Shown: positions 1 through 24,831 of the stretch, piece after piece
Layout: each line of letters opens with the position of its first letter
How positions within the stretch are numbered: position 1 is the stretch's first letter
Assembly (NCBI GenBank): GCA_003009755.1
Contig: PXUB01000032.1
Location: 32,001 to 96,000 of the forward strand
Source of the DNA: Thermoplasmatales archaeon SW_10_69_26
GTDB lineage: Archaea; Thermoplasmatota; SW-10-69-26
Direction: 5' to 3'
DNA length: 64,000 bases
Notes under the pieces: model-generated
Databases searched by the model: none
The model's input: the letters and a program-made list of their open reading frames with translations, nothing else
Told to the model about the DNA's origin: nothing
Made by a program: the position numbers and the translations under genes

Positions 1-1
1 T

Positions 2-418: not shown

Positions 419-504
419 AACCGCTATCAGGCCCGAGCGCCCGAAAAAGCTTGCCGTTTTCGCCCCACGGTCTCCGGGCGCGGAATGCCGAGACCGGCGC
501 GAGG

Positions 505-1647: not shown

Positions 1648-1686
1648 CGGCGGCCCTCCCGTCGGCCCGTCGCCGAGCGTGCCATT

Positions 1687-3027
1687 CTAGGCCTGCCCGG
1701 CGCGCTCCAGCGCGGCCTCGATGGCGTCCTCGATGCCCGCGGATCGCTCGACCGCGTAGGGGGCCGGATCCTCCAACGTGGCTACCTCGGCCGGCAGCGC
1801 CTCGAGCTGGTCGGCGAACCGCTGGCGGGCCACCTGCGTCGCCTTGGCCGGGTCCCGGTAGGTGAGCGGTTCCAAAAGCGGCTGGCCGTTGCCCTCCTCG
1901 TCGACGCGAGCGATCACGTCGCCGATCATGCGGCCGTCCTCGAAGCGTCGGTACACCTGCTTGGCGGCCGGCAGCGTGCGCTTGCCCTCGCTGGTCTTCA
2001 TGACGGGCTCGCCCTCGTAGGCGGCCAGCTTGTAGGAGAGGTTCAGCGAGGGCGCATCGTCGGAGACGACCATCGAGGTGCCGACGCCGAACCCGTCCAC
2101 CGGCGCCCCCTCGGCGAGGATGCGCGCGATCTCGTGCTCGTCGAGCCCGCCGGACACGAACACGTCCACGTCCGCCAGCCCGGCCTCGTCCAGCCGGGCG
2201 CGAGCGCGCTCGGCCTCGGCGACGAGATCCCCGGAGTCGATGCGGACGCCGCCGATCTCCACGCCCTCGTCGGCGAGGTCCTCGGCCAGCTCGATCACCA
2301 TCTCGGTCGCCTGCTGGATGTCGAAGGTATCGATCAACAGCGTCGTGCCGTCCGGGAACGACCGCGCGAAGGAGGCCAGGGCCTCCCGCTCGTCGCCGAA
2401 GGCCTGCACGTAAGCGTGCGCCATCGTCCCGAAGCAGGGGATCTGCATCTCGCGGGCGGCGGACACGAGCGAGGTGCCGGCGAACCCGGCCACGTAGGCG
2501 GCGCGAGCCGCCGCTCGGCCCGCATCGAGGCCGTGGGCGCGCCGCGCCCCGAAGTCGACCATCGCGGCGGAGGCCTCGGCCTGGTCGAGGGCCAGCTGGC
2601 AGCGAGCCGCCTTCGAGGCGATCACCGTCTGCAGGTGGATCGTGTTCAACACGAGCGTCTCGACGAGCTGGGCCATCACCAGCGGGGCCTCGATCTGGAC
2701 GATCGGCTCGTAGGGGAACACCGCCGTGCCCTCCGGCATCGCCCGCACCCGGCCCTCGAAGGAGAACCCGTCGAGGTAACCGATCAGATCCCCCGACAGG
2801 CCCTGCTCCTCGAGGAAGGCCAGGTCCTCGTCGGTGAACGTGAACCGGTCGAGCCGCCGAGCCAGCGCCTGGGTCCCGCACACCGTCAGGAACCCGCGAT
2901 CGGTGGGGAGACCGCGGACGTGCAGGTCGAACACGGCCTCGCCCGTCTGCCCGTGGTCGAGGTAGGACTGAGCCATCGTGAACTCGTACAGGTCGGTGAA
3001 CGTGCCCAGCGGCTCAGCAGGAGGCAT
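1687..3027 (-). CDS. pncB: Nicotinate phosphoribosyltransferase
   Basis: FTDLYEFTM, DFGARRAH, GTMAH, RIDSGD, FGVGT motifs; start moved to ATG 3027. Confidence 0.93.
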   Translation of the reverse strand: MPPAEPLGTFTDLYEFTMAQSYLDHGQTGEAVFDLHVRGLPTDRGFLTVCGTQALARRLDRFTFTDEDLAFLEEQGLSGDLIGYLDGFSFEGRVRAMPEGTAVFPYEPIVQIEAPLVMAQLVETLVLNTIHLQTVIASKAARCQLALDQAEASAAMVDFGARRAHGLDAGRAAARAAYVAGFAGTSLVSAAREMQIPCFGTMAHAYVQAFGDEREALASFARSFPDGTTLLIDTFDIQQATEMVIELAEDLADEGVEIGGVRIDSGDLVAEAERARARLDEAGLADVDVFVSGGLDEHEIARILAEGAPVDGFGVGTSMVVSDDAPSLNLSYKLAAYEGEPVMKTSEGKRTLPAAKQVYRRFEDGRMIGDVIARVDEEGNGQPLLEPLTYRDPAKATQVARQRFADQLEALPAEVATLEDPAPYAVERSAGIEDAIEAALERAGQA

Positions 3028-3077
3028 CGTGGCCCGGATGCGGTCTCCCTGCCTTGATTTTCGCTGTCCCCCGCCGG

Positions 3078-3093
3078 GTCCCGCCCGTGGGAC
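3078..3093. promoter_or_regulatory. Palindromic candidate operator GTCCCGCCCGTGGGAC in the divergent pncB/aldolase promoter
   Basis: Inverted repeat; same core recurs at 8470 and 12483. Confidence 0.5.
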
Positions 3094-3226
3094 TCGGTGA
3101 AAACCACAACCCCGGACCGCGCCTCGTCCGTGGGCCCCGACGTGATCGCATGCCCGGCCCCCGCTCGCCCACGGCCCCCCGCGAACCACGCCTCTCGACC
3201 GACCCGCCTACCGCGCTCGGTGCACC

Positions 3227-4621
3227 ATGAGCCCGCCCGACCCCTGGTCGAGGTTCCCGGAGGGGGCGCTCGACGCCGTCGAGGTCACCGACGGCCAGGC
3301 CCGCGTCCTCGACGACAAGCGCGTCCGCGAGGACCTGGTCGGTCCGCTGGTCACCGTCGCCACCTTCGCCGCCGGGGAACGCAAGGCCACCGCCCAGGCC
3401 CTGATCCGGTCGTTGGCGCACGAGGTCGGCATCGAGGAGGCCTCGATCCACGAGCTGTACCGCGCCCGGGGACGAGGCGAGGTCGAGGGGTTCACCGTGC
3501 CGGCGATGAACCTCCGCACGATGACCTACGACATGGCCCGAGCTGCCTTCCGCGCCGCCGAGCGCGAGGACGTGGGCGCGCTCGTCTTCGAGATCGCCCG
3601 CAGCGAGATCGGGTACACCGGTCAATCGCCGGCCGAGTACGCCAGCGCCGTCCTCGGCGCCGCGATCCGCGAGGGCCACCGCGGCCCCGTGTTCCTGCAG
3701 GGCGACCACTTCCAGTTCGATCCCGAGGCCGTGGCGGAGGACGCCGACGCCGAGCAGGCTCGCATCGACGACCTCGCCGAGGAGGCGATCGAGGCCGGGT
3801 TCTACAACATCGACGTCGACGCCTCCACGCTCGTCGACCTCGACGAGGCGGACGTGGCCGACCAGCAACGCCCCAACGTCGACCGCACGCTGACCACGCT
3901 GGCCCGGATCCGGTCGCTGGAGCCGGTGACGGTGAGCGTCGGCGGCGAGGTCGGCGAGGTCGGCCTCGAGACGACGACCGAGCCCGAGCTGCGGGTCTTC
4001 CTCGAACAGCTGGACGACGGCTGCCAGCAGCGGGGCCTGGAGGGCATCAGCAAGGCCAGCGTGCAGACGGGCACCCAGCACGGCGGCGTCGTGCTCCCCG
4101 ACGGATCGTTGGCCGAGGCCGACGTCGACGTCGAGGCCGTGCGGCGCCTGTCGCGCCTGGCCCGCGAGCACGGTTTGGCCGGGTGCGTCCAGCACGGCGC
4201 CTCCACGCTGCGGGACGAGCTGTTCGCACGGTTCCCGGAGGCCGGCGCCGCCGAGATCCACCTGGCGACCGCCTTCCTCAACCTCGTCCTCGACCACGAG
4301 GCCTTCCCCGGCGAGCTGACTCGCCGCATCGAGGAGCACCTGGACGAGCATCTCGCCCACCGGCGCACGCCGGAGGCCACCGACGAGCAGTTCGTCTACC
4401 GCCACCGCAAGCGCGCGATGGGAGCCCTCAAGGAGCCGATGTGGCGCGTGGCCGAGGACCGCAAGCAGGCGATCTTCGCCGACCTCGAGGAGCGGTTCTC
4501 GTTCCTCTTCGACGAGCTGGGCGTCACGGGCACCACCGACACGGTCGACACCTACGTCACGCCGGACCCGGTCGAGCCCACCGTCCCCGAAGCGTGGCGA
4601 GCCGACCTCGCGGGCCGGTGA
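3227..4621 (+). CDS. fba: Class II fructose-bisphosphate aldolase family protein (long atypical form)
   Basis: FLQGDH, GGEVGEVG, GTQHGG, QHGAST metal-binding motifs; operon with pfkB. Confidence 0.8.
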   Translation: MSPPDPWSRFPEGALDAVEVTDGQARVLDDKRVREDLVGPLVTVATFAAGERKATAQALIRSLAHEVGIEEASIHELYRARGRGEVEGFTVPAMNLRTMTYDMARAAFRAAEREDVGALVFEIARSEIGYTGQSPAEYASAVLGAAIREGHRGPVFLQGDHFQFDPEAVAEDADAEQARIDDLAEEAIEAGFYNIDVDASTLVDLDEADVADQQRPNVDRTLTTLARIRSLEPVTVSVGGEVGEVGLETTTEPELRVFLEQLDDGCQQRGLEGISKASVQTGTQHGGVVLPDGSLAEADVDVEAVRRLSRLAREHGLAGCVQHGASTLRDELFARFPEAGAAEIHLATAFLNLVLDHEAFPGELTRRIEEHLDEHLAHRRTPEATDEQFVYRHRKRAMGALKEPMWRVAEDRKQAIFADLEERFSFLFDELGVTGTTDTVDTYVTPDPVEPTVPEAWRADLAGR

Positions 4622-4625
4622 TCGC

Positions 4626-5570
4626 GTGCCCGACCGAGAAGAGATCGTCACCCTGACGCTCAACCCGGCCCTCGACCAGGTCTGCTGGGTCGACGAGATC
4701 GAGGAGGAGGTCAAGATCCGCGCCCACGGGTCCTCCTTCGAGCCCGGCGGCGGCGGGATCAACGTCGCTCGCGCGCTGCACCAGCTCGACGTCGAAACCA
4801 CCGCCTACTGGTCCCAGGGCGCCGAGACCGGCCACATGATGGGTCGCCTGCTGGACCAGGAGGGCGTCGACCACCACCCCGTGGACATCGAAGCCACGAC
4901 CCGCGTGAACCTCGCCGTGTTCGCCGACCACAACGGCGACCGCGAGCTGATGTTCAACATGCCCGGCGCCCCCCTCACCGCGGACGAGGTGGACCGTTGG
5001 CTGCACGTCGTCGACGGCATCGACGCCCGGTTCGCCGTCCTCAGCGGCAGCCGCCCGCCCGACAGCGGCCACATCTACGGTCAGATCACGCGCCAGCTCA
5101 CCCGGCGATCGAAGGTCATCCTGGACACCAGTGGCCCGGGCCTCGAGCAAGCCCTCGAGGAGGGGGTGTTCCTCGCCAAGCCCAACCGCGAGGAGCTGAT
5201 CGCCCTCGCCGGCCGGGACGCGGCGACCCCCAGCGGTCTCGAGGCAGCCGCTCGGGACCTGATCGAGACCGGCATGGCCGAGATCGTGGTCGTCTCCCTG
5301 GCCGGCGAGGGGGCCCTGGCGGTGACCGATGGCGGCAGCGTGCGCGTGGATGCCCCGGTCGTCGAAGCCAAGAGCAACGTCGGCGCCGGCGACAGCATGG
5401 TGGCCGGCCTGACGCGCAAGCTCTCGGGCGGGTTCCAAGTCGAGGAGGCGGTCCGCTACGGGGTGGCGGCCGGCGCCGACGCCGCCCGCCGCCCCGGGAC
5501 CGAGCTGTGCACGCGTGACGGCGTGCGAGAGCTACTCGCCGGCACCACGCTGCACCGGTCCCTCCCGTGA
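4626..5570 (+). CDS. pfkB: PfkB-family (1-/6-phosphofructokinase type) hexose-phosphate kinase
   Basis: TLTLNPALD, PGGGGINVAR, LSGS, KPNREEL, VGAGDS. Confidence 0.9.
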   Translation: MPDREEIVTLTLNPALDQVCWVDEIEEEVKIRAHGSSFEPGGGGINVARALHQLDVETTAYWSQGAETGHMMGRLLDQEGVDHHPVDIEATTRVNLAVFADHNGDRELMFNMPGAPLTADEVDRWLHVVDGIDARFAVLSGSRPPDSGHIYGQITRQLTRRSKVILDTSGPGLEQALEEGVFLAKPNREELIALAGRDAATPSGLEAAARDLIETGMAEIVVVSLAGEGALAVTDGGSVRVDAPVVEAKSNVGAGDSMVAGLTRKLSGGFQVEEAVRYGVAAGADAARRPGTELCTRDGVRELLAGTTLHRSLP

Positions 5571-7379
5571 GCGCAACGCCTCGACGGCCGGCAGATCCTC
5601 GCCCGCCAACGCCGACAACAGGGCACCGCCCGCCAAGGAGACGTGATCGAAGCGATCCCGGGGCACGCCCAGCTGGGTTATCGCCTGCACCGTGTGACCG
5701 CCGCCGATGACGCTGTAGGCGTCGGCCTTGCCGGCGGCCGAGAACACCCGGTGGGTGCCCCGGTCGTAGGGCGTCTCCTCGTAGACGCCCATCGGGCCGT
5801 GCACGAGCAGCGTGCCGGCGTCGTTGGCGTGGTCGGCGAAGCTGTCGGCCGTGTCCTTCCCGATGTCGCGGATCCGGCCCCGGGCCGGCAGCTCGTCGAC
5901 GGGGACCTCGAAACGGTCGCCGTTGCGGTGGACCGCCACGTCGGTCGGCAACCGGATCCGGTCGCCGTAGGTGTCGAAAAGCGAGCGGGCCTGGCGGCCG
6001 TGCTCGCGGTAGCCGTGCTCCTCCAGCAGGGCTCGGGTGCCTTGCCCGGTGTTGACGCCGTCGGCTTCGAGGAACGAGGCCGCCAACAGGCCCCCGACGA
6101 GCACCTCGTCGACCCGGTCGCGCGCCAGCTGGTAGGCCATCGCATCCAGGCTCGCGCCCGGCTTGGCGCCGCCGAGCACGGCCACCCGCGGCTCGTCCTG
6201 GCGGCCGACGCGTTCGAGCGCCTCCAGCTCGGCCAACAGCCCCGGCCCGGCGAGGGCAGGCAGCAGTTCGGGGAACCCGACCAGCGAGGCGTGCGAGCGG
6301 TGGCACGCCGGGAACGCCTCGTTCACGAACACGTCCACCCGCGAGGCCACCGCCTGCACCCAATCGCGCCGGGCGTGCCCGCCGGGGCTGATGTCGGACA
6401 TCTCGCCCTCGGCCCGGCGCACGTTGCCCAAAAGCAAGACCTCGCCCGGCGCCACCGATCCGGCGGCCTCGAGCGCCCGATCGTCGTCGATCGCCTCGAC
6501 GTGGTCGACGGGGACCGCCAGCCTCTCGTCCAGGATCGCGGCGTGCTGGCCCAAGTCGAGGAAGTCCTCGCGCCCGGGGCGGCCTTGGTGGGCGAGGACG
6601 ACGACGCCGGCGCCGCGGTCGAGCAGCGTCTGGATCGTGTCCGCGGCCGCTTGCAACCGATCGCGGCCGACGATCCGGCCGTCCTCGACCGGCTCGTTGA
6701 CGTCCACCCGCAACAGGACGCGTCGATCCGTCAGCTCGGCGTCGTCGATCGTCGCCAGCAACCCGCTGGCGGCCTCGACCTCGGTCGGGGTCGGCGTCGG
6801 CACGCGCGCGCTCCGGCCGTCCTCGGCGTCGGTTCGGATCACGTCCAGCACGCGGCGAGCCAACAGCCCCAGCACCGGCTTGACGAAGCCGGTCCACCGG
6901 CTCAGGCGCTGGCGCCCGGTCTCGTCCAGGCCGCGGGCGCGGGCCTCCAGCACGAGCAGGCAGTTGTCCCCGTGGCGTTCGTGGATCGACAAGGACACCA
7001 CGCCCTTGGCGCCCGAGCCGGTGTGGGCCAGGAACCGTTCGGGGGTGAGGCTCTCGACGAGCTCGAGCGGGTTCCAGAACCGGCCCACGAGCCCGACCAC
7101 GATCTCGCGCCCGGGGGCCTCGGCCAGCGGGACGCAGGCGGGGTGGTCGAGCAGGTCGCCGACCGTCGTGTCGGGGGCGATCGGTTCGCGGTCGCCGGAC
7201 TGGAGGAAGGACAGCGCCATCTGCGGGAGCTCGCGCAGCCACGTGGCCGCGGCCAGCAGCTGGTCGTCGCCGATCTGCGCCGGCCGGATCGCCTCGTAGA
7301 CCTCGTCGGCGGGCGCGTCGACGGCGACCGAGCGCACCAGGCGCACGTCGTCGTCGGGGAGGAAACGATCGTTGAGCAT
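5532..7379 (-). CDS. pgk: Phosphoglycerate kinase with an extra ~200-aa N-terminal domain
   Basis: RVLLRVDVNEP, LAHQGRPG, HRSHAS, LGGAK, GPMGVYE, GGGHT, HVSLAGGA; PGK begins at about residue 205. Confidence 0.88.
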   Translation of the reverse strand: MLNDRFLPDDDVRLVRSVAVDAPADEVYEAIRPAQIGDDQLLAAATWLRELPQMALSFLQSGDREPIAPDTTVGDLLDHPACVPLAEAPGREIVVGLVGRFWNPLELVESLTPERFLAHTGSGAKGVVSLSIHERHGDNCLLVLEARARGLDETGRQRLSRWTGFVKPVLGLLARRVLDVIRTDAEDGRSARVPTPTPTEVEAASGLLATIDDAELTDRRVLLRVDVNEPVEDGRIVGRDRLQAAADTIQTLLDRGAGVVVLAHQGRPGREDFLDLGQHAAILDERLAVPVDHVEAIDDDRALEAAGSVAPGEVLLLGNVRRAEGEMSDISPGGHARRDWVQAVASRVDVFVNEAFPACHRSHASLVGFPELLPALAGPGLLAELEALERVGRQDEPRVAVLGGAKPGASLDAMAYQLARDRVDEVLVGGLLAASFLEADGVNTGQGTRALLEEHGYREHGRQARSLFDTYGDRIRLPTDVAVHRNGDRFEVPVDELPARGRIRDIGKDTADSFADHANDAGTLLVHGPMGVYEETPYDRGTHRVFSAAGKADAYSVIGGGHTVQAITQLGVPRDRFDHVSLAGGALLSALAGEDLPAVEALRSREGPVQRGAGE

Positions 7380-7403
7380 GGGAGGCGGAAGGCTTGACGG
7401 TCC

Positions 7404-8426
7404 TCAAGCGGTCTCCTGATCCCACATGTCCATGACGAGATCCGCGGTGCGCACGCTGTAGCCCCACTCGTTGTCGTACCACGAGAGGACCTTGACCATG
7501 CGCTCCTCGCAGACCTTCAGGCTCGGCGCGTCGACGACCGCGCTGTAAGGGGTCGTCTGGTAGTCGACGCTCACCAGCGGCTCGTCCTCGACGCGCAGGA
7601 TCCCCGCCAGCTCCTCGTCGGCGGCCTCGCGGTAGGCGGCGGTGACCTCGTCGGCGCTGGCGGTGTCGTTCATCCGCACGGTGAGGTCCACGACGGAGAC
7701 GTTGGGCACCGGTACCCGGATCGCCATCGCGTCGAGGCGGCCCTCCAGCTCCGGCATGACGGACCCGATCGCCTTGGCCGCCCCCGTCGAGGTGGGGATC
7801 ATCGAGACGGCGGCGGCGCGGGCGCGCCGCAGGTCGTCGTGCTCCCGGTCGAGGAGGACCTGGGAGTTCGTGTAGGCGTGCGCGGTCGTCACGAGGCCGT
7901 GCTGGATCCCGAACCGGTCGTGCAGGACCTTGGCGGTGGGGCCCAGGCAGTTCGTCGTGCACGAGCTGTTCGAGACGAGGCGATCCTCGCCGGGGTCGTA
8001 GGTGTCGCCGTTGACGCCGAGGACGAGCGTGGCGTCGACCTCGTCCTTCGGCGGTGCCGACAGCACGACGCGGTCGGCCCCGTTGTCGAGGTGGGTCTGC
8101 AGATCCGCGCGGTGCCGGAACTGGCCGGTGCACTCGATCACGTAGTCGACGTCGAACTTGTCCCAAGCCAGGTTGCTGGGATCGGGTTCGGAGAGCACGT
8201 GGAAGTGATCCCCGTCGATGACGAGGTCGCCGTCGACGAGCTCGACCTCGCCCTCGTAGGTCCCGTGCAGGCTGTCGTGCTTGAACAGGTGAGCCAGCGT
8301 CTCGTTGTCGGTCAGGTCGTTGATCGCGGCGATGTCGATCGGGTCCTCGTGGTCCAGCAGCGCCCGCAGCGCCAGGCGACCGATGCGTCCGAACCCGTTG
8401 ATCGCGATCCGAGGAGCCCGCGGCAT
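7404..8426 (-). CDS. gap: Type I (bacterial-type) glyceraldehyde-3-phosphate dehydrogenase
   Basis: INGFGRIGR, SNSSCTTNCL, IPTSTGAAKA, SWYDNEWGYS; start moved to ATG 8426. Confidence 0.96.
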   Translation of the reverse strand: MPRAPRIAINGFGRIGRLALRALLDHEDPIDIAAINDLTDNETLAHLFKHDSLHGTYEGEVELVDGDLVIDGDHFHVLSEPDPSNLAWDKFDVDYVIECTGQFRHRADLQTHLDNGADRVVLSAPPKDEVDATLVLGVNGDTYDPGEDRLVSNSSCTTNCLGPTAKVLHDRFGIQHGLVTTAHAYTNSQVLLDREHDDLRRARAAAVSMIPTSTGAAKAIGSVMPELEGRLDAMAIRVPVPNVSVVDLTVRMNDTASADEVTAAYREAADEELAGILRVEDEPLVSVDYQTTPYSAVVDAPSLKVCEERMVKVLSWYDNEWGYSVRTADLVMDMWDQETA

Positions 8427-8469
8427 GGCCCGCCGTTGGCCCTGGCTGGAGATTAAGGCTGGTTGCCAG

Positions 8470-8483
8470 TCCCACGCCTGGGA
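8470..8483. promoter_or_regulatory. Palindromic candidate operator TCCCACGCCTGGGA upstream of gap
   Basis: Perfect TCCCA-N4-TGGGA, 44 nt upstream of the gap ATG and just upstream of a TTAAT box. Confidence 0.55.
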
Positions 8484-8484
8484 G

Positions 8485-10893
8485 CTAGCGGGCCAAGCGG
8501 ACGCTGTCGCCCTCGCCGATCCGGCGCACATCCTGCTCGAGCCCGATCTCCACCGGATCGCGGCCGGCGGCGTGCGAGGTGACGGCCACCTCGTCCTCCC
8601 GGACGCGTGCCTCCAACAGGTGGCCGCGGTACCGCAGCTCGACGGACACCGACTCCAGCGGGTCGGGGAAGGCGGGGTCGAAGGCGAGCACGTCCTCGGC
8701 GACCGACAGACCGGTGTAGCCGCGCTGCACGAGATCGATCGCGCCCGTCATCGAGCCCAAATGGATGCCCTCGTGCGTGGTGCCACCCTGGATATCCTCC
8801 ACGTCGGCGTCCAGGGCCCGCTGGAACAGCTGCCAGGAGCGGTCCGGGTCCAGCTCGGCCAACGCCCAGGCGTGCAGGAAGTAGCTCAGCGTGGATCCAT
8901 GCGAGGTCCGGTCGATGTAGTACTCCACGTTGCGAGGGATGTGGGCCTCCGGATCGAAGCTGTAGCCCAACCGGTCGAAGATGCCGGCCAACCGGTCGGG
9001 GGAGAACAGGTAGAACAGCATCACCACGTCGGGCTGCTTGGACGCCTTGTAGCGGTTCGCGTCGTCGTCCTCGGCCTCGAGGATGCGGTCCAACCGCTGG
9101 ATATCGTCGTAGCGCTCTTCGTAGCCCTCCCAGTCGAACTCCTCCAACCGGTGGTAGCCCTCGAACTGGCTGACGAGCCCGTCGTCGGCGATCGGGACGA
9201 ACAGGTTGCGGCTCACCTCGTCCCAACGATCGAGCTCGTCGTGCGTGAGCCGCAGCTTCTCCACCAGCTCGGCGCTGCGGTCCTTGGGCAGGATGTCGAG
9301 CACGTCCAGCCCCCGCTCGAGGCACCAGGCGGCCATCACGTTCGTGTACGCGTTGTTGTCCAGGCCCGGCTCGTCGCGCCACGGGTAGCGAGTGTGGTAC
9401 TCGTCGGGGCCGACGACACCGGTGATCTCGTAGGCGCCGCGCTCGTGGTCGTACCCGGCGAAGCTCGCCCAGAACCGAGCGATCGACAACAGCATCTCGG
9501 CGCCGTACAGCGCCAGGAACTCCATGTCGCCGGTCACGTGGTAGTGATGCCAGACGCTGTAGGCGATGGAGGCGTTGATGTGCCGTTGCAAGTGCGTCTC
9601 GTCGGGGATCCAGCGCCCCGAGCGCGGGTTGAGGTGCAGCTGTTGGCTCTCCTCCTCGCCGTTGGAGCCGCTTTGCCAGGGGAACATCGCGCCCTCGTAG
9701 CCCTGCCGGCGGGCGCGGCGCCGAGCCTCGTCGAGGCGGCGGAACCGGTAGCGCAGAAGCGAGCGAGCGATCTGCGGCACGTGGAAGTTCAGCGTCGGGA
9801 ACACGAACATCTCGTCCCAGAAGATGTGGCCGCGGTAGGCCTCGCCGTGCCAGCCGCGCGCCGGCACGCCGACATCGAAGTCGGTCGTGTGGAAGCTGGC
9901 GGTCTGCAGCAGGTGCAAGATGTGCAACCGCAAGGTGCGGGCCACACGGGCCTGCTCCACCGAGCCCGAGACGCCGACCTGCAGCCCGAAGCGACCCCAC
10001 AGGTGCCGCCAGTGCGTCGTGTGCCGGGTGTAGAGGTCCAGGAACCGCGGGGCGCGCGCGAGCTCGCGCTCCACCTCGTAGCCCGGCTCGGACGTCGCAG
10101 GGTCCCGCCCGGTGTACATCGAGCAGATCTTCTCGACGCGCACCGGTCGGCCCTCCCCGACGTGGACCGGGAACCGCTGGCGGACGCGGTCCTCCTCGGT
10201 GTCCGTCTGGCGAGCCGGTTGGATCGGGGATCCGTCGCGGTAGGCCTTCGTGCGAGCGGCTTGGGCCACCCGCACCCGGGAGCGATCGGTGTGGGTGAGA
10301 AGCCGCATCGTTTCGGCGTCCGCCATGTCGGTCCCGATCGGGTCCAGGTGCTGGCTCTCGAGATCCTGGTAGCGTTCGACGTTGGCGTTCTCGACCGTGC
10401 CGTCGATGGCGGTCTCGACCTGGATCTGGCCCGACCAGTCGAGCGGTTCGACGACCATCTGCTGCGCGGCGCGGTGGGGGTTGGCCATGCTGACGATGCG
10501 CCGGTTGACGAGCTTCGTCGTCCGGTCCTGGTCGTCGCGGAAGCGCACGCGGCGCGTCAGCATCGCGGTCTCGAGGTCGAGCACCTTCTCGTAGTCGAGG
10601 ACGTCGACCTCCTCGAGCCGGAACCAGGGGCCCCCGGCGGCGCGGAACGTGATCGGCAGCCAGTTCGGCATGTTGACGAGATCCTCGTTCTGGATCTCCT
10701 GGTCGAGCTTGACCGACGTCTGCCGGTCGTAGCCGCCGGCGAGGTACGTGCCCGGGTAGTGGACGTCGTCGGCGCTGGCCTCCGGCTCGGCACCGCGCGT
10801 GCACACGTAGCCGTTGCCGAGCGTCGTGAGCGCCTCGCGCAGCGGTTGCTCGTCGGGCGAGAACCCGCGGTAGCCGAACGTCCACCCGTTCAC
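8485..10893 (-). CDS. Glycoside hydrolase family 65 (trehalose/kojibiose phosphorylase-like)
   Basis: LTTLGNGY, ARGWHGEAYRGHIFWDE, GPDEYH, KQPDV, HGSTLS, EGIHLG; GTG start 10893 overlaps the upstream stop. Confidence 0.92.
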   Translation of the reverse strand: MNGWTFGYRGFSPDEQPLREALTTLGNGYVCTRGAEPEASADDVHYPGTYLAGGYDRQTSVKLDQEIQNEDLVNMPNWLPITFRAAGGPWFRLEEVDVLDYEKVLDLETAMLTRRVRFRDDQDRTTKLVNRRIVSMANPHRAAQQMVVEPLDWSGQIQVETAIDGTVENANVERYQDLESQHLDPIGTDMADAETMRLLTHTDRSRVRVAQAARTKAYRDGSPIQPARQTDTEEDRVRQRFPVHVGEGRPVRVEKICSMYTGRDPATSEPGYEVERELARAPRFLDLYTRHTTHWRHLWGRFGLQVGVSGSVEQARVARTLRLHILHLLQTASFHTTDFDVGVPARGWHGEAYRGHIFWDEMFVFPTLNFHVPQIARSLLRYRFRRLDEARRRARRQGYEGAMFPWQSGSNGEEESQQLHLNPRSGRWIPDETHLQRHINASIAYSVWHHYHVTGDMEFLALYGAEMLLSIARFWASFAGYDHERGAYEITGVVGPDEYHTRYPWRDEPGLDNNAYTNVMAAWCLERGLDVLDILPKDRSAELVEKLRLTHDELDRWDEVSRNLFVPIADDGLVSQFEGYHRLEEFDWEGYEERYDDIQRLDRILEAEDDDANRYKASKQPDVVMLFYLFSPDRLAGIFDRLGYSFDPEAHIPRNVEYYIDRTSHGSTLSYFLHAWALAELDPDRSWQLFQRALDADVEDIQGGTTHEGIHLGSMTGAIDLVQRGYTGLSVAEDVLAFDPAFPDPLESVSVELRYRGHLLEARVREDEVAVTSHAAGRDPVEIGLEQDVRRIGEGDSVRLAR

Positions 10894-12440
10894 GAGGGGC
10901 CCTCCAGCGTCCCCGCGATCGCGTCGAGGAAGGCCCGCACCGCCTCGGGGCCGGCCAAGCCGTAGTCCGCGAACGTCGGGCGGCCCTCGCCGCTCACGAG
11001 CACGCCGATCCCCTGCGGGAGCGCGTGGAAGGCGTCCTCGTCGGTGACGTCGTCGCCGACGTACACGACCGGCGTGTGGCGAGGATCGACGTCGAGCTGG
11101 TCGAGCAGGTGCTCGACGGCGCGGCCCTTGTCCCAGTCGACGTCCGGGCGCAGCTCGCGGACCCGCTTGCCGGGCGCGATCCGCAGCTCGGGGCTCTCGC
11201 CGGCCACGGCTTCCACGGTGCCACGCACGCGCTCGACCTGCCCGTCGGGGACCTGGCGATCGTGCACCGCCAGGGAGAACGGCTTGGGTTCGAGCACGAG
11301 CCCGTCCACGTCGCCCAGCTCGTCCTCGATCCGTTCCCGGGCGGCCTCGAGCGCGGGGACGAGGTCCTCGGCGACCCCGTGACGGGTGCGCTCGCCGCCG
11401 GGTTCGCGGATCTCCAGCCCGTGGCTGCCGGCGTAGATCAGCTCGTCGAGCCCGACGCGCTCGCGGACGTCGTCCAGCCCGCGCCCGCTGACGACCGCCA
11501 CCGGGCACCGCTCGGCCAGGCGAGCCACCGCCGCCCGCATCTCGTCGGAGATCGCGGCCCGATCCGGGTGCTCCACGATCGGCGACAGCGTTCCGTCGAA
11601 GTCGAGGAACACGACCGGGCGGTGCCGATCGACGCGCTCGAGGATCTCGTCCGCCGCGAGCGCGTCCGGCCGATCGGCGGGATCGCGGACGGGCACGTCG
11701 ATCTCGTCGAGGCTCGCGACGACGCGATCGGCCCCGCTGTCGGCCAGCGCCTGGGCGTGCCCGACCCGGTCGACACCGACGACGAGGCCGAACCCGCCGC
11801 GCCGGGCGGCCTCGACACCGGCCGCCGAGTCCTCCAGCACGAGGCAGCGCTCGGGCGCCGCCACCATGCGGCGGGCCGTCTCCAACAGCGTCTGGGGCGA
11901 GGGCTTGCCGGCCAGCCCCTCGTCGGCGGCCACGATCCCTCCGACGACGACGTCGAACCGCTCGCCCAGGCCCGCCGCGGCCAGGACCCGGCGAGCGTTG
12001 CGGCTGGCCGAGAACAGCCCCGCCGGGATCTCGGCCTCCGCCAGGTCGTCGAGCAGGGCCGTGGCGTCCTCGTGGACGGTGACGCCCTCCTCGTCGAGCA
12101 GCTCGTGGAAGCGCTCGTTCTTCGCCTCCGCGATCGCTTCCACCGAAGCCAGCCCCGGCTCGTCGGCCGTCTCCGGCAGCTGGATCCCCCGAGACGCCAG
12201 GAAGTGACGGATGCCACGTCGGCGGGGTTTGCCGTCGACGTGCTCGGGGTAGTCCTCCTCGGTGTCGAAGGGCGCCAGGTCCTCGCCCTCCCGCGCGGCC
12301 CGCTCCTCGAGCACCCGATCGAAGATCTCCTTCCAGGCGAACGCGTGCAGCCGGGCCGTCTGGGTGATCACGCCGTCGAGATCGAACAGGACAGCGTCCG
12401 TCGACGCCGGGTCGACCGCGATCCTCGTATCCCGCGACAC
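10890..12440 (-). CDS. otsB: Fusion of a beta-PGM-like HAD hydrolase and trehalose-6-phosphate phosphatase
   Basis: FDLDGVIT...GKPSP...EDS (HAD 1); FLDFDGTLSPIV, YAGSHG, WDKG, YVGDDVTDEDAF (TPP). Confidence 0.9.
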   Translation of the reverse strand: MSRDTRIAVDPASTDAVLFDLDGVITQTARLHAFAWKEIFDRVLEERAAREGEDLAPFDTEEDYPEHVDGKPRRRGIRHFLASRGIQLPETADEPGLASVEAIAEAKNERFHELLDEEGVTVHEDATALLDDLAEAEIPAGLFSASRNARRVLAAAGLGERFDVVVGGIVAADEGLAGKPSPQTLLETARRMVAAPERCLVLEDSAAGVEAARRGGFGLVVGVDRVGHAQALADSGADRVVASLDEIDVPVRDPADRPDALAADEILERVDRHRPVVFLDFDGTLSPIVEHPDRAAISDEMRAAVARLAERCPVAVVSGRGLDDVRERVGLDELIYAGSHGLEIREPGGERTRHGVAEDLVPALEAARERIEDELGDVDGLVLEPKPFSLAVHDRQVPDGQVERVRGTVEAVAGESPELRIAPGKRVRELRPDVDWDKGRAVEHLLDQLDVDPRHTPVVYVGDDVTDEDAFHALPQGIGVLVSGEGRPTFADYGLAGPEAVRAFLDAIAGTLEGPS

Positions 12441-12482
12441 GATCCCCCGTTGCCCTCGGGGGCACTATGGGCTGACCCCCGT

Positions 12483-12496
12483 TCCCAGTCCTGGGA
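12483..12496. promoter_or_regulatory. Palindromic candidate operator TCCCAGTCCTGGGA in the divergent otsB/wHTH promoter
   Basis: Perfect TCCCA-N4-TGGGA, 43 nt upstream of the otsB start. Confidence 0.55.
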
Positions 12497-12596
12497 CTCG
12501 CCGAGCCCGGCGTCCGTTTCCCCTCCGAAACCGTCGCTTGGCCCCACCAGGCGGGCCTTCGCGACCCCCAAGGGCCGGAGCCAGCCATCCGGGGAC

Positions 12597-12932
12597 GTGT
12601 TCCTCGAGCCGGAGGATCCCGGGGTCGACGAGGAGGCCGTTGGCTCGGCGGTGGCCAACCCCTGCGATCGCCAGATCCTGGCCCTCGCCCAGCGGGGCCC
12701 GGTCGCGGCGAAGACGATCCTCGAACGGACCAGCATCCCGAAGAGCACCCTGTACCGCCGCATCGACCGGCTGCAGGAGCAAGGCCTCCTGGAGGTCGTC
12801 TCCTCCACGATCGAGGACGGCCACCGGATCGACCGGTACCGGTGCCCACTGCAAGGGATCGGCATCCGCATCGAGGACGGGGAGATCCACCTCGAGTGGT
12901 CGGCCCGCCGACCCCAAGCCGAGGACGCTTGA
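12597..12932 (+). CDS. Winged helix-turn-helix transcription regulator (archaeal ArsR-like)
   Basis: C-terminal part of ORF 11025..12932: DRQILALAQRGPVAAKTILERTSIPKSTLYRRIDRLQEQGLL; GTG start inferred. Confidence 0.8.
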   Translation: MFLEPEDPGVDEEAVGSAVANPCDRQILALAQRGPVAAKTILERTSIPKSTLYRRIDRLQEQGLLEVVSSTIEDGHRIDRYRCPLQGIGIRIEDGEIHLEWSARRPQAEDA

Positions 12933-12986
12933 CCAGATGTTCGGCCGACGCAGCCGTTTTCGAGCCTCACCGTCAACGCGGGTACG

Positions 12987-13403
12987 ATGAGCGTCCAGGA
13001 CATCGCCCGAGATCGCGTGGTGACGGCCGACCCCCACACGGCCGCCGAGCAGGTCGCCCGACAGCTCAAGGAGGCCAACGTGGGCTGCGTCGTCGTGACC
13101 GAGGACGGCCAGCCGAGCGGGCTCGTCACCGACCGGGACCTGGTGACGCGGGTCGTGGCCAACCTCGGCGCCGCCAGCGGCCTCACCGCCGGCGACATCA
13201 TGACGCCCGAGGTCGCCACGATCGAGGCCGACCAGGGCATCTTCGAGCTGACCGAGCTGATGCGGCGGCAGGGGATCCGCCGCGTCCCCGTCGTCGACGG
13301 CGGCGACCTCGACGGGATCGTCACCTTGGACGACGTCCACCGGCTGTTGACGACCGAGCTCTCGAACCTCGCCCATGTCATCGAGAAGGAGTCGCCCGCG
13401 TAG
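12987..13403 (+). CDS. Tandem CBS-domain protein (Hrp1/Rv2626c-like)
   Basis: VGCVVV..GLVTDRDLV, IMTPEV, IRRVPVV..GIVTLDD. Confidence 0.9.
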   Translation: MSVQDIARDRVVTADPHTAAEQVARQLKEANVGCVVVTEDGQPSGLVTDRDLVTRVVANLGAASGLTAGDIMTPEVATIEADQGIFELTELMRRQGIRRVPVVDGGDLDGIVTLDDVHRLLTTELSNLAHVIEKESPA

Positions 13404-13404
13404 G

Positions 13405-14337
13405 ATGATCGAGCGAATCCTCGTCGGGACGGAGGGAAGCCAAGCCGCCGACAACGCCGTCTCGACCGCGCTCCGGCTCGCCCGCGCCGCCGACGCCGAG
13501 ATCCGGGCCGTGCACGCCCGCGAGACCCCGGAGGGTGCTCGACGCCGGTCCGCCGCCGGCCGACAGGTCGCCCACCAGCGCGAACGCGCCGGCGAGCGGG
13601 TGCTCGAAGCGGTCACCGAGCGCGCCGGCAAGGTCGACGTGCCCGCCACGACCGTCATCGACGACCGACCGCCGGCCGAGCTGTTGCTCGCGCAGGCCCG
13701 CGAGTGGGGTGCCGACCTGCTCGCGATCGGGGCCCAAGGCGAAAGCGGGTTCGAGCGAGCGATCCGCGGCAGCGTGGCCGACCAGCTGATCCGCGGCTCG
13801 CCGGTGCCCGTCCTCACCGTGCACCAACCGCCCTCGACCGACCCGCTGGACCCGATCGAGCGCCTGGTGGTGCCCTCGGACGGCAGCTCGGCCGCCCTCA
13901 GCGCAGCGCCGGTCGCCCGCGCCCTCGCCCGAGCCACCGGGGCCCGCCTCGACCTGGTGTTCGCTGTCCCGCCCCGGATCGAAGGCGGCGAGCTGCTGGG
14001 CCCGACCGACGACATCGAGCAGGCCGCCGCCACGCTCGCCGACGACGCCCTGGCCCCCCTCGAACGACGCTACCGGGGGACCGAGATCGAACGCGAGCGC
14101 CGTGTCCGCCACGACGCCCCCCACCGGGCGATCGTCCACCACGCCGACGAGAGGGACGCCGACATGATCGTCATGTCCACCCGCGGCCACGGATCGCTGG
14201 AACGAGTCCTCTTGGGTAGCGTCGTGGACAAGGTGCTTCGAACCTCGAACGTCCCCGTCGTCACGGTCAACCCCCCCGGCGAGGACGACCGCGTCGCCAG
14301 CCCGGAGGGCCAAGGGCCACAGGGAGCGCGGACCTAG
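13405..14337 (+). CDS. Universal stress protein (two USP domains)
   Basis: ILVGTEGS / VVPSDGS, GSVADQLIR, MSTRGHGSLERVLLGSVVDKVLR. Confidence 0.9.
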   Translation: MIERILVGTEGSQAADNAVSTALRLARAADAEIRAVHARETPEGARRRSAAGRQVAHQRERAGERVLEAVTERAGKVDVPATTVIDDRPPAELLLAQAREWGADLLAIGAQGESGFERAIRGSVADQLIRGSPVPVLTVHQPPSTDPLDPIERLVVPSDGSSAALSAAPVARALARATGARLDLVFAVPPRIEGGELLGPTDDIEQAAATLADDALAPLERRYRGTEIERERRVRHDAPHRAIVHHADERDADMIVMSTRGHGSLERVLLGSVVDKVLRTSNVPVVTVNPPGEDDRVASPEGQGPQGART

Positions 14338-14361
14338 CCTGCCGGACTCGATGTGCCTAAC
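14335..14361 (+). mobile_element. Isolated IS630-like terminal inverted repeat relic
   Basis: TAGCCTGCCGGACTCGATGTGCCTAAC matches the IS630 left end at 57545 at 22/27 positions. Confidence 0.55.
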
Positions 14362-14509
14362 ATCTCGCGGCGGTCTCGGGAGACCGGCCACGGTCTTCCG
14401 AGAGTACGGGCGCAAGCCCGTGCGAATGAGCGAGTCAAGGTCACGGAGGCCGAAGCAGGAAACCCCCTGCGGGGTTTCGATGCAGGCCGACGATGAGATG
14501 GGGCGCTGA

Positions 14510-15217
14510 GGCCGCCGGGTCCTCTCCGACCTCGCCGCGGAAGCCGACGGGTACGGGGTCCCGATCGAGACGACGCTCGCGGAGGGCCAACCCGCCGACG
14601 TGCTGCTCGACGAGGCCGGGGACTGGCCAGCCGACCTGCTCGCTGTCGGGACCGAAGGCCAGGGGGCGCTAGCGCGGGCGATCGTGGGGAGCGTGGCCGA
14701 CCAGGTCGTCCGCTCGGCCCCTCGACCCGTGCTGACCGTGCGCGGGGACCCCGCCACGCCCTCCACGGCCCCGATCGAACGGGTGGTGGTCCCGACGGAC
14801 GGCAGCGCGGCCTCGCGAGCGGCCGCACCGTTCGCGATCGACCTGGCTGCCTCCACCGGCGCCCGGGTCGATCTCCTCCACGCGATCCCACCCCAGCTCG
14901 AGGACGCCGCTCGCGTGGATCGGCCGGCCGCCCAGACCCGACAGATCCGCGAAGAGGTGGTCGAGGCGGCCCTGACCCCGCTCGTCGAGGATTGCCGGCA
15001 GGCGGGCGTCGACCACGAGCGCGTCGTCCGCCGGGCGCGAGCGCGGGAAGCCATTGCGGACTACGCCGACGAGACGGATGTCGACGTGATCGTGATGGCG
15101 ACCCACGGGCGATCCGGCGTCGAGCGGTTCCTGCTCGGCAGCGTGACCGACAAGGTCATCCGATCGACCGACACGCCGGTCGTGACGATCCGCCCCGGCG
15201 ACGCCGCGTGGGCGTGA
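14510..15217 (+). pseudogene. 5'-truncated tandem universal stress protein
   Basis: USP homology begins right after an in-frame TGA (14507-14509); the N-terminal strand of the first domain is missing; second domain intact (VVVPTDGS, MATHGRSG..LGSVTDKVIR). Confidence 0.7.
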
Positions 15218-15232
15218 GGGTCCCGCCGACCG

Positions 15233-15643
15233 TCACCCGCGCTCGAGGGCCTCGGCCGCCTTGTTCGGGTTCTCGACGGCGAACACGCAGCGAAGGGACT
15301 CCTCCTCGCCGTCCATGGCGACGAAGCTGGCTTCGATGTTGATGCCGGCCTGCCCCAGTTCGCTGGACAACCGGCCCAGCTGACCCGGCAGGTTCGGTAC
15401 CGTGACGACGATCGCTTCCCGCGTCTCCGGCGCGAACCCGTCCTCCTCGAGCACGACCGCGGCCTCGTCGGCGTCGTCGGTGACGAGGTGGACCGTTCCC
15501 GGCTCGGTGCCGCGCGCCACCGCGGCGAACCCGAGGATGTCGATGTCCTCCTTGCCGAGCAGCTGGGCCAGGTTCCCCAACGTGCCCGGGCGGTTGGGGA
15601 TCTCGACGACGAACTCCTTGGTCAACCCCACCTTCCTTGTCAT
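15233..15643 (-). CDS. Tandem ACT-domain protein
   Basis: IPNRPGTLGNLAQLLG..DI and VPNLPGQLGRLS..GINI repeats. Confidence 0.85.
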   Translation of the reverse strand: MTRKVGLTKEFVVEIPNRPGTLGNLAQLLGKEDIDILGFAAVARGTEPGTVHLVTDDADEAAVVLEEDGFAPETREAIVVTVPNLPGQLGRLSSELGQAGINIEASFVAMDGEEESLRCVFAVENPNKAAEALERG

Positions 15644-16031
15644 GTCATCCCACTGTGGAGGTCCACGCGTATCAAGCTTCGCCCCGGGCGAGGCCCGGCT
15701 GTCTCGTTAAGCAGGGGCCGCGAAGGACACGAAGGATCGCCACGGCCACGAACCTGTGACTCGCCGCCGGGCGGCTTTGGCACGGCAGCTGCTCGCCTTT
15801 GTGCCCTGGCGTCCCGTCGCGTACTTGGTGGCCCCCCGTTTCTCCCTTACAGCGCGGGGCGAGGCCCTGCTCGCGAGCTCTCCCGGCGGTGTCGGGCCGC
15901 ACATGTGAGCCCGAGGCTCCGGCGTGGCCCCCGGGCGAGGCACCGATGGGTGTATCCGGGAGGAGGTGGTGGCGAGGGTCGTGTCTGGCGACCGAACCGG
16001 TGCGCTGCGCGAGGAAGCCAGCTCCTGGGCC

Positions 16032-16877: not shown

Positions 16878-17220
16878 GCTCGGGCCTGAGGCCTCGACCG
16901 CCGAGGGCCGAGCCCCGTCTTCGGCGGGCTCTCGCTCGCGGTTCGCTGTCCCCCGTGGGCGGCGAGCCGTCGTTCGTGTTCCGGCCGGGGTTGTCATCTA
17001 GGGGATCGACGTTCGCGACCAACGCGTGATCGCGGCCATCCTGCTCGTAGTCACCCTCTTCGGGCTCGTCGCCTGTGCGCTGGTCTGGCTGGTCTCCTCC
17101 GCCGGCCACTGCCAGGCCCCCCGGCGAGGATGGAGGGCCTGCCCGCTCCACCTCGTGACCTGTCTGCGGGGAGGGACGGACGGAGGCTTCGAGCCCGAGA
17201 TGAAGTGGCCGTCTCCCGTA

Positions 17221-18246: not shown

Positions 18247-18263
18247 CTCCCGTATGGTGGGCC

Positions 18264-19142: not shown

Positions 19143-19199
19143 GGCGGCCGATCGCGTGCGCTCGTGGGAAGCCAACCTCGACGCACCACCGCGGCCTCC

Positions 19200-19937: not shown

Positions 19938-19997
19938 CAGGGGATCTCTGCTTAAGCCTGTCTGCGCTCCCCGTCCCCGATCGCCCGCAGCCCCGAG

Positions 19998-24700: not shown

Positions 24701-24831
24701 CTAGCGCTTGGCTTCCTCTCCTCCGGGGGCCTTCCCTCTGCTTCCCTGCTTCTCTGCGCGTCTCATTTTCGACCGCGAGGGCGGCCCCGCTCGACCCCAC
24801 GGACCCAAGTTCCCCGAGCCGATGGGTCACC

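Follow-up and report, generated by a model that had tools for sequence, protein, structure and literature searches.

An archaeal island of glycolytic, trehalose-related and stress-protein genes and its likeness to the metabolic genes of the DosR regulon

What brings together, in an archaeon, genes that are otherwise familiar from the hypoxia and dormancy regulon of Mycobacterium tuberculosis? The question is raised by a 14-kb gene island at positions 1687-15643 of a 64,000-nucleotide stretch of contig PXUB01000032.1 from Thermoplasmatales archaeon SW_10_69_26 (the whole stretch is called the window below). The island combines genes for nicotinate phosphoribosyltransferase (PncB), a PfkB-family kinase, a GH65 glycoside phosphorylase and a HAD protein with a trehalose-6-phosphate phosphatase (TPP) domain with genes for a CBS-pair protein and tandem universal stress proteins (USPs), as well as an aldolase-like enzyme, glyceraldehyde-3-phosphate dehydrogenase (GAPDH), phosphoglycerate kinase (PGK), an ACT protein and a small winged-helix (wHTH) regulator. 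An earlier note on this DNA had read the set as a low-oxygen or dormancy module. We describe it as a composite of catabolic and stress genes, a variant within the known kind of acquired sugar-use island under local regulation. Our best explanation, which we hold at about even confidence, is that it mobilises trehalose-6-phosphate or trehalose into substrate-level ATP, with NAD salvage, ligand-binding modulators and a local regulator. Trehalose-to-glycolysis catabolism is a simpler account of the enzymes than dormancy.

A predicted route from trehalose to glycolysis

Since the GC content of the window is about 70%, reading frames were chosen by third-position GC (GC3) and then named with Pfam and NCBIfam models. 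A GC3 of 0.85-0.95 backs the reading frame of every named island gene. The genes of the island are listed here in order of position.

1687-3189, minus strand: pncB, nicotinate phosphoribosyltransferase, likely ATG start at 3027 (NF006696, 525 bits against a cut-off of 503)
3227-4621, plus strand: class II aldolase-superfamily enzyme, long form, 464 aa (PF01116, 43 bits against a cut-off of 25.5)
4626-5570, plus strand: pfkB, PfkB-family hexose-phosphate kinase (TIGR03168, 261 bits against a cut-off of 216)
5532-7379, minus strand: pgk with an extra N-terminal domain (PF00162 over residues 211-594)
7404-8531, minus strand: gap, type I (bacterial-type) GAPDH, likely ATG start at 8426 (TIGR01534, 416 bits against 367)
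8485-10893, minus strand: GH65 glycoside phosphorylase, trehalose-6-phosphate-phosphorylase-like (PF03636, 227 bits; PF03632, 426 bits; PF03633, 38 bits)
10890-12440, minus strand: HAD protein with beta-phosphoglucomutase-like and TPP domains, HAD-TPP (TIGR00685, 170 bits against 68)
about 12597-12932, plus strand: small wHTH protein of about 111 aa, start uncertain (HTH_20, 36 bits; MarR_2; TrmB)
12987-13403, plus strand: stand-alone CBS-pair protein (PF00571 in two stretches; PDB matches generic)
13375-14337, plus strand: tandem universal stress protein, USP1, start possibly ATG 13405 (PF00582 in two stretches, 187 bits)
14510-15217, plus strand: second tandem USP gene, 5'-truncated, first in-frame start GTG 14600
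15233-15643, minus strand: ACT-pair small-ligand-binding protein (PF01842 in two stretches, and PF19571)

All the genes that the earlier note had named as a cluster were found between 1687 and 15643, as judged by Pfam and NCBIfam scores and GC3, with some corrections to their form. The HAD-OtsB and GH65 parts are both present, but as two genes that are split after the TPP domain, with the domain order kept, and not as the single polypeptide of OtsB1. The gene called an aldolase does belong to the class II superfamily by its PF01116 match; its reaction is uncertain, and its fold is closer to C4 epimerases and GatZ. Of the two tandem-USP genes, both of them present, the second has lost its 5' end to a dispersed repeat.

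The route that we favour would begin with the GH65 phosphorylase, which would cleave trehalose-6-phosphate (or trehalose) with phosphate. The beta-phosphoglucomutase-like HAD domain would turn beta-glucose-1-phosphate into glucose-6-phosphate, the phosphoglucose/phosphomannose isomerase (PGI/PMI) of the host would convert this to fructose-6-phosphate, and the PfkB kinase and class II aldolase-like enzyme of the island would yield triose phosphates. NADH and ATP would then come from the bacterial-type GAPDH and the domain-fused PGK, while PncB would uphold the NAD pool. The CBS pair, the USPs, the ACT pair and the extra PGK domain are putative sensors of ligands or energy state, and the wHTH protein would bind a palindrome shared by the regions upstream of three operons.

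The GH65 protein holds the key step. Among solved structures it matches 9lb6 best (425 bits), which was deposited under the name 'trehalose-6-phosphate hydrolase', and kojibiose phosphorylase 3wiq scores 340 bits. GH65 phosphorylases have a glutamate as catalytic acid and a phosphate site of Lys/Arg, Tyr, Ser-Ser and His in place of the catalytic base, as set out in the GH65 review PMC11442529, from which the roles of the residues of the phosphorylase CsKP were carried onto the 3wiq alignment. The island residues R346, Y353, E498, S667-T668 and H711 align to CsKP K330, Y337, E483, S631-S632 and H675, and K619 and Q620 likewise align to CsKP phosphorylase residues; the second serine of the phosphate site is a threonine in the island protein and also in the aligned 9lb6 chain. 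Because the catalytic acid E498 and the phosphate site are kept, the protein looks like a phosphorylase and not a hydrolase by these signature residues. PMC11442529 also gives the trehalose-6-phosphate phosphorylase reaction as trehalose-6-phosphate and phosphate to beta-glucose-1-phosphate and glucose-6-phosphate, and describes GH65 phosphorylases as reversible and used to make trehalose-6-phosphate from beta-glucose-1-phosphate and glucose-6-phosphate.

In the neighbouring HAD-TPP gene, the first domain scores 151 bits against a cut-off of 153 for TIGR02009, the beta-phosphoglucomutase family, and the nucleophile motifs of both domains (DLDGV and DFDGT) are intact in the translation. The GTG start of the GH65 gene lies on the TGA stop of HAD-TPP in a GTGA overlap. 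The pair recalls the trehalose route of Lactococcus lactis, where a GH65 phosphorylase and a HAD protein of the beta-phosphoglucomutase family lead to glucose-6-phosphate, according to PMC11442529 and PMC7608592. In contrast to that route, the beta-phosphoglucomutase-like domain of the island is fused to TPP, a sugar phosphotransferase uptake system is lacking, the pair is linked to PfkB, GAPDH and PGK, and its substrate is only predicted.

The kinase that follows in the proposed route appears most like 6-phosphofructokinase II. Among solved proteins E. coli Pfk-2 matches it best (187 bits, with fructose-1-phosphate kinase at 126 bits), and it falls under the equivalog cut-offs of both NF007632 (231 against 353) and TIGR03828 (236 against 292). 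The class II aldolase-like protein is less easily named. It scores 28 bits with the GatZ/KbaZ-like PF08013 and 24 bits against a cut-off of 343 with TIGR01859, and its predicted model (predicted local distance difference test, pLDDT, 91) finds as top fold the archaeal tagatose 4-epimerase 9kcs (Z 32.9, root-mean-square deviation 2.5, 348 residues aligned), followed by GatZ 2fiq (Z 31.0) and UxaE (Z 29.7), with short class II fructose- and tagatose-bisphosphate aldolases at Z 24-28. An alignment of 14 sequences of the family keeps GDH, GT.HGG and QHGAS invariant; we take these to be its metal-site and catalytic-site motifs. The protein may cleave ketose bisphosphates as an aldolase or act as a C4 epimerase; according to one abstract, class II aldolases are able to do both.

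At its N terminus the PGK is extended by about 200 aa, a stretch that is coding by GC3 (0.93-1.0) and matches no Pfam family. Residues 1-200 resemble 200-aa bacterial hypothetical proteins that are commonest in Actinomycetota (feature score 0.93, TM 0.84), and more remotely DUF2867/Polyketide_cyc2; the domain looks SRPBCC-like, and a 609-aa Myxococcota cluster may be the same fusion. Haloferax volcanii has separate GAPDH enzymes for the two directions, a glycolytic bacterial-type GapI and a gluconeogenic GapII. The island host is similar in having a type I GAPDH and a type-II-like GAPDH of its own; it differs in belonging to another, small class and in carrying the type I gene within a larger island.

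The other sugar enzymes of the host genome give the island its context. OtsA lies directly beside a stand-alone TPP on contig C17, and the genome has a PGI/PMI-type isomerase (PF00342 and cupin PGI were not found in it), triose-phosphate isomerase (TIM), a bifunctional fructose-1,6-bisphosphate (FBP) aldolase/phosphatase (579 bits), a type-II-like GAPDH beside TIM (124 bits, below the cut-off of 185) and, on contig C2, a second PGK with 47% identity to that of the island. For PfkB, PncB, type I GAPDH and GH65, the island copy is the only one found in the host genome. The host thus has gluconeogenic enzymes and OtsA-OtsB trehalose synthesis, and therefore the island would supply the missing downhill direction.

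Both the substrate of the GH65 enzyme and the direction of flux are points that we infer, and the same enzymes could be read in reverse. Glucose-6-phosphate would be converted to beta-glucose-1-phosphate, reverse phosphorolysis would give trehalose-6-phosphate, and TPP would release trehalose without nucleotide sugars, as a cheap protectant route under salt or drying stress whose neighbours merely supply hexose phosphates. Only the biosynthetic direction gives the beta-phosphoglucomutase-like, TPP and GH65 phosphorylase domains a step each, and it agrees with the two intact nucleophile motifs and with the reversibility of GH65 phosphorylases noted above. It also agrees with the finding that OtsA (GT20) is the commonest immediate neighbour of the HAD-TPP/GH65 pair in bacteria (8 of 131 scanned neighbour ORFs). 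However, the island contains PfkB, essentially a one-way glycolytic kinase, along with GAPDH and PGK, and the host already has OtsA-OtsB and the gluconeogenic FBP aldolase/phosphatase. We consider trehalose synthesis unlikely, though the least unlikely of the three alternatives to the catabolic route.

Layout, regulator gene and shared palindrome

The genes of the island are closely packed in alternating operons, with a gap of 4 nt between the aldolase-like gene and pfkB and of 24 nt between gap and pgk. The arrangement exceeds chance. Besides the probable source run, four halite-metagenome runs from a different study contain low-depth contigs that are about 98-99% identical to the island and that bridge 2763-5070, 5171-7019, 9501-11176, 12086-14364 and 14548-15702. 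These cover the junctions pncB/aldolase/pfkB, pfkB/pgk, GH65/HAD-TPP, HAD-TPP/wHTH/CBS/USP1 and USP2/ACT. Since independent contigs span the junctions, the layout is not an assembly chimera and the gene order exists in nature.

Three of the intergenic regions share a motif, TCCC-N5-TGGGA, the only common upstream motif that a comparison of the intergenic stretches of the island brought out:

3079-3092, no strand assigned: palindrome TCCCGCCCGTGGGA, candidate operator, 52-65 nt before the ATG of pncB and 135 nt before that of the aldolase-like gene
8470-8483, no strand assigned: palindrome TCCCACGCCTGGGA, in the spacer between GH65 and gap, 44-57 nt before the ATG of gap
12483-12496, no strand assigned: perfect palindrome TCCCAGTCCTGGGA, between the divergent HAD-TPP and wHTH genes, 43-56 nt before the GTG of HAD-TPP

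The 64-kb window contains exactly three sites, each upstream of an island operon, which amount to five strand-matches against a shuffle mean of 0.75 (none of 100 shuffles reached five). The 2.8-Mb genome contains 23 sites, so that 0.11 would be expected in 14 kb, where three are found. All three palindromes precede minus-strand units (pncB, gap-pgk and HAD-TPP-GH65), 43-65 nt ahead of the start codon, and 13-17 nt after each there is an AT-rich box, about 28-34 nt before the start codon; TCCCACGCCTGGGA, for example, sits just upstream of an AT-rich TTAATC box. Such a box spacing is expected for leaderless archaeal promoters. Two of the palindromes stand in divergent regions that are shared with the aldolase-pfkB and wHTH-CBS-USP units, with TCCCAGTCCTGGGA 100 nt upstream of the wHTH start. 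Five other sites in the genome adjoin unrelated genes (for a MiaB-like radical SAM protein, a VWA protein, GluRS, Pcc1 and a family-less ORF).

We propose that the palindrome is a candidate operator and infer that the wHTH protein may be its binder. The island resembles the TrmB/MarR-like sugar regulators of archaea in having a wHTH (HTH_20/MarR_2/TrmB) beside sugar operons with a palindrome near the TATA box. It differs from them in that the wHTH, at about 111 aa, has no recognisable sugar-binding domain and its binding is predicted. In two relatives assigned to genus g2 (G001 and G004), pncB is preceded at about 100 nt by a conserved stretch that looks like a promoter and has a strong TATA element, GTAGTATATAAGCGG; this stretch is missing from the window.

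Several points weigh against a trehalose-catabolic island under one local regulator. Every enzyme activity in the route is predicted, and the specificity of a GH65 enzyme cannot be read from its sequence, which leaves trehalose-6-phosphate a probable substrate at best. A route that is purely catabolic leaves a TPP domain without a purpose. As the aldolase-like enzyme resembles C4 epimerases and GatZ in its fold (Z 31-33) more than it does short class II aldolases (Z 24-28), the route may lack an aldolase, and as PncB is the sole copy in the genome and conserved in the family, its placement in the island may be incidental. One USP gene is broken. As to regulation, the motif was defined from the very regions in which it was counted and is therefore post hoc. 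The relatives G005, G012 and G004 do not keep it before pncB or HAD-TPP in the upstream DNA that is readable, where the contig of G002 ends at pncB, and G001 has only a looser TCCC-N6-GGGA.

The remaining features of the island and its surroundings are as follows.

505-1647, minus strand: dinB, 40 nt downstream of pncB on the same strand
14333-14517, no strand assigned: dispersed repeat of about 185 bp, MITE-like
15694-15856: dispersed repeat of about 165 bp, with the ACT gene on one side and the DsbA-like gene on the other
17295-17708 and 17683-18228: IS1595-family transposase in two frames, Zn-ribbon part and DDE part, respectively

The repeat at 14333-14517 has 53 other matches in the genome by BLASTN (up to 94% identity), contains several short hairpins and shows raised depth in the metagenome contigs. 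It occupies the place of the 5' end of the second USP gene, whose product is without the first 55 or so residues of its first domain. On the right flank, the 165-bp repeat, a DsbA-like gene and the frame-split IS1595 transposase follow the ACT gene. This second repeat has 47 other genome matches (79-96% identity) and a word depth that reaches 70-345 in halite metagenome contigs, where the sequence nearby has about 10, and matches no Rfam family; in the transposase, contigs of other runs differ by one base at 17651-17652. The 20 kb to the left of the window hold ordinary genes, such as those for CysRS, PolB and XseA. Positions 1-20000 of the window contain no tRNA and no Rfam family at gathering score (an sX6 match of 11.5 bits was sub-threshold and was disregarded), and neither the tRNA scan of this region nor the annotation of the 20 kb upstream revealed a tRNA or an integrase near the island. 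The GC content of the island is about 0.72, compared with 0.63-0.72 elsewhere.

The host genome is a metagenome-assembled genome (MAG) of 2.82 Mb in 49 contigs, 95% complete, and its class comprises 21 species-level genomes in total. The host is an archaeon, as marked by the Rpb7/RpoE' gene at 39823-40536 and by the Volactin and DUF7490 genes that also lie within the window. Directly 5' of the Rpb7/RpoE' gene there is a gene for a membrane H+-pyrophosphatase (847 bits), and the pair spans 37603-40536. Elsewhere in the window we noted tandem genes for cyclophilin-type peptidyl-prolyl isomerases at 23430-25425, the second with an N-terminal extension of about 120 aa, and an ORF at 30485-31882 that joins a protein-L-isoaspartate O-methyltransferase-like region to C-terminal TPR repeats.

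Distribution and origins

The distribution of the island genes within the class is patchy. Among the 21 genomes, the host (G000) included, GH65 is found in two (the host and G004 of the same family), PfkB in the host only and type I GAPDH in four. The aldolase-like enzyme occurs in seven genomes, none of them of the same family, at 40-49% identity. PncB also occurs in seven, among them four of the five same-family genomes at 54-58% identity, and its gene also scores above the cut-off of NF009131 (494 bits against 330) and is single-copy in the host. The wHTH and USPs, like PncB, are found in same-family relatives. In G002 a wHTH homologue with 44% identity adjoins pncB, and in G005 a USP does so. 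None of the class relatives has the island genes together in the regions examined, and the five regions that hold the aldolase-like gene in class-mates are without island partners; conservation of synteny in related MAGs, proposed in the earlier note as a check, is not what these regions display.

The named relatives of the individual enzymes lie in different bacterial groups: Anaerolineae/Chloroflexi for the aldolase-like protein (about 50-53% identity), and Planctomycetota, Gemmatimonadota and Nitrospirota for PfkB (43-46%). Metagenome proteins that are 58-98% identical to the aldolase-like enzyme, PfkB and GH65 exist (P0003, P0122-P0125, P0242-P0246), and a metagenome scan found loci at 42-54% identity among the matches listed. 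The GH65 family itself is very large and mostly bacterial, with all 8000 scored candidates at E <= 1e-30. Among the 120 matches listed, the best relative is 70% identical and the rest are 52-56% identical, and nine are fusions, eight with the full HAD-TPP-GH65 order and one HAD-GH65. A fused HAD-TPP-GH65 frame of 1279 aa was also observed in G038, a small-genome archaeon of the same phylum (contig C7, 14090-17827), with the other island genes absent nearby.

In the GH65 trees the window sequence pairs with G004 (support 99-100), and archaeal rows stand in at least three places of a mostly bacterial tree: the row of G038 adjoins the main Actinomycetota group, and those of Argoarchaeum, Ethanoperedens and an uncultured archaeon fall with Desulfohalobiaceae. 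A careful tree of 50 rows has an Actinomycetota MAG as sister (support 99/83). In an approximately unbiased (AU) test, a GH65 clade with Actinomycetota was not rejected (p 0.78), and the constrained tree outscored the quick free tree. A quick-tree placement with Kineobactrum and Gemmatimonadaceae had a support of 38 and was dropped when the constrained search gave a better tree. The bacterial sister of the island GH65 is unstable across trees. Of the phylogenies suggested earlier as a check on kinship with DosR-regulon orthologs, that of GH65 is compatible with an Actinomycetota clade.

Signs of acquisition are the patchy occurrence of GH65, PfkB and gap, the scattered archaeal rows in the GH65 tree and the repeats and IS1595 remnant on the right. 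The lack of a tRNA or integrase and the small difference in GC content speak against it, and pncB, wHTH and USP look resident. The island appears to be a mosaic of resident pncB, wHTH and USP with acquired GH65/HAD-TPP, PfkB and aldolase-like genes, and probably gap. Since its parts differ in distribution and nearest relatives, they were not transferred as a single block; the proposed bacterial acquisition agrees with the bacterial look of several parts, but not with their having moved as one.

A mosaic of this kind could also lack any joint function, the sugar genes having landed by chance between pncB-dinB and wHTH-CBS-USP and the palindrome being a coincidence. The differing distribution of the parts among relatives would fit this, as would the mobile repeats and IS1595 remnant, the post hoc motif and its lack of conservation in relatives, and the fact that USP and CBS genes are common, with paralogues on host contigs C26, C17 and C14. 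The weak enrichment of single families near bacterial GH65 genes (Fisher p 0.03-0.44, described below) fits as well. Against it, the enzymes form consecutive steps of one pathway, three copies of the motif stand at matching promoter positions in a 14-kb interval where a fraction of one site is expected, and the pncB-wHTH and pncB-USP links recur in two relatives. We regard chance assembly as improbable, slightly more so than trehalose synthesis.

Likeness to the DosR regulon and what it may mean

The DosR regulon comprises about 48 genes, and only five of them are matched in the island. The five families that the earlier note recognised (PncB, PfkB, the domains of OtsB1, the CBS pair and tandem USPs) are indeed common to both according to the DevR regulon table in PMC3177182, which lists Rv0574c-Rv0573c, Rv1996 (USP), Rv1997 ctpF, Rv2005c (USP), Rv2006 otsB, the hspX-Rv2030c-Rv2029c-Rv2028c operon, Rv2623 and Rv2626c. 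The M. tuberculosis counterparts are Rv0573c (pncB2), Rv2029c (pfkB), Rv2006 (otsB1), Rv2626c, and Rv2623/Rv2005c/Rv2028c. The two sets differ in that the island is one 14-kb cluster while the regulon genes are scattered, in the split of OtsB1 into two genes, and in the aldolase-like enzyme, GAPDH, PGK, ACT protein and wHTH that the island adds. The likeness of the CBS protein to Rv2626c and of USP1 to Rv2623 is generic on sequence comparison: the former scores 46.7 bits and is about the eighth-best solved match, and the latter scores 47 bits over a full-length alignment as the second or third.

As to regulation, no gene for a regulator with REC and LuxR/GerE domains or for a DosS/DosT-type kinase was found among the annotated ORFs of window positions 1-31.9 kb and the 20 kb upstream (the remaining genome was not searched). 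The absence of a two-component system, also stated at the outset, is borne out in the same region; the archaeal one-component regulator that had been proposed in its stead is represented by the small wHTH gene, but its control of the island is conjectural. A literature search found no description of a DosR-like set in archaea among the papers listed.

To see how often the same families meet elsewhere, we compiled 80 GH65-anchored loci from named genomes and recorded families within about 10 kb (E <= 1e-3), with 80 aldolase-anchored loci as a rough outside control. HAD-TPP is present in 76 of the 80 GH65-anchored loci. PfkB was found in six (three of them from Pontibacter), CBS in six, USP in five, PncB in four and gap in four, and none of the five in 60. 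In the control set the counts were zero for PfkB and PncB, one for gap and two each for CBS and USP. Any of the five families is present in 20 of 80 GH65 loci against 5 of 80 aldolase loci (p 0.002), and the Fisher p values near GH65 are 0.03 for pfkB, 0.12 for pncB, 0.28 for CBS, 0.37 for gap and 0.44 for USP, in a comparison of sets that are unequal in size (1.37 and 0.94 Mb) and taxa and that include non-independent kin such as the three Pontibacter loci. No locus of either set reproduces the gene set of the island.

The flanking ORFs of the GH65 loci cluster into P-type ATPases (11), OtsA (10), phosphoenolpyruvate (PEP)-utilising enzymes (9), Fpg (6) and LuxR-type response regulators (5). 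A census of the nearest genes (at most two per locus within 1.5 kb; 143 ORFs from 76 loci, of which 131 from 75 loci were scanned) gave GT20 8 times, P-type ATPases 5-6, PEP-utilisers 4-5, Usp 4, PfkB 3 and one RtcB. Farther out, at 5.5 kb or more, 143 genes of these loci showed no family more than twice and the census families not at all. One further locus, in Rhodococcus sp. IEGM 1379 (6390-13794), has GH65 with a TPP-like stretch just upstream and USP genes on both sides, as well as a second HAD gene on the opposite strand and a DinB homologue about 5 kb off; it looks similar to the Rv2005c-Rv2006 arrangement. As a lead, the OtsB1-type pair has a loose, recurrent and sporadic neighbourhood that overlaps the content of the regulon, with a shared programme unproven. 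The common families would then stem from a widespread bacterial gene neighbourhood centred on OtsB1, on which the island and the DosR regulon alike draw.

These data bear directly on the original proposal of a DosR-type hypoxia or dormancy regulon, derived from an actinobacterium or convergent and switched on by low oxygen. In its favour are the five DevR-regulon families and the AU result and Actinomycetota sister described for GH65. The bacterial HAD-TPP/GH65 loci moreover hold P-type ATPases (11 of 80), LuxR-type regulators (5 of 80), USPs, PfkB and one RtcB, families that likewise stand in the regulon table of PMC3177182. On the other side, the island has no neighbouring gene of the DosR/DosS/DosT type, a domain that senses oxygen or redox state is likewise absent, and Hsp20, nitroreductase, ferredoxin and Tgs did not turn up in the ORFs that were annotated. 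Matches of the CBS and USP proteins are generic, the parts differ in phyletic pattern and nearest relatives, and three quarters of the bacterial loci (60 of 80) have none of the five families. No RNA run was listed as containing window positions 3201-13200. The island is like the metabolic arm of the DosR regulon in content, but not in the regulatory features that define the regulon. We judge a DosR-type regulon the least probable of the explanations weighed here, and treat any link of the catabolic island to stress, desiccation or low oxygen as conjecture.

A wider idea, doubtful but not wholly implausible to us, is that a recurrent guild of Bacteria and Archaea, made up of OtsB1-type genes and those for PfkB, PncB, USPs and CBS proteins, serves survival on stored trehalose when energy, oxygen or water is short, and that the island is its fullest known version, rewired under its own small wHTH activator and a private operator. 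If this were true, the island would reveal the role of OtsB1 and the reason why the DosR regulon holds its metabolic genes. Should the link to stress not hold, what remains is an ordinary acquired island for sugar use.

The three-domain OtsB1 of M. tuberculosis has a function that is 'yet unknown' in the words of a 2024 review (PMC11046441). Its split counterpart here, in an operon-like setting with GAPDH and PGK and beside PfkB, provides a functional context for the OtsB1 family and a concrete hypothesis, namely that trehalose-6-phosphate or trehalose phosphorolysis may feed glycolysis. For the salt-rock archaeon itself, the island would represent a bacterial-style glycolytic branch, built from genes of mixed origin and placed under one candidate operator.

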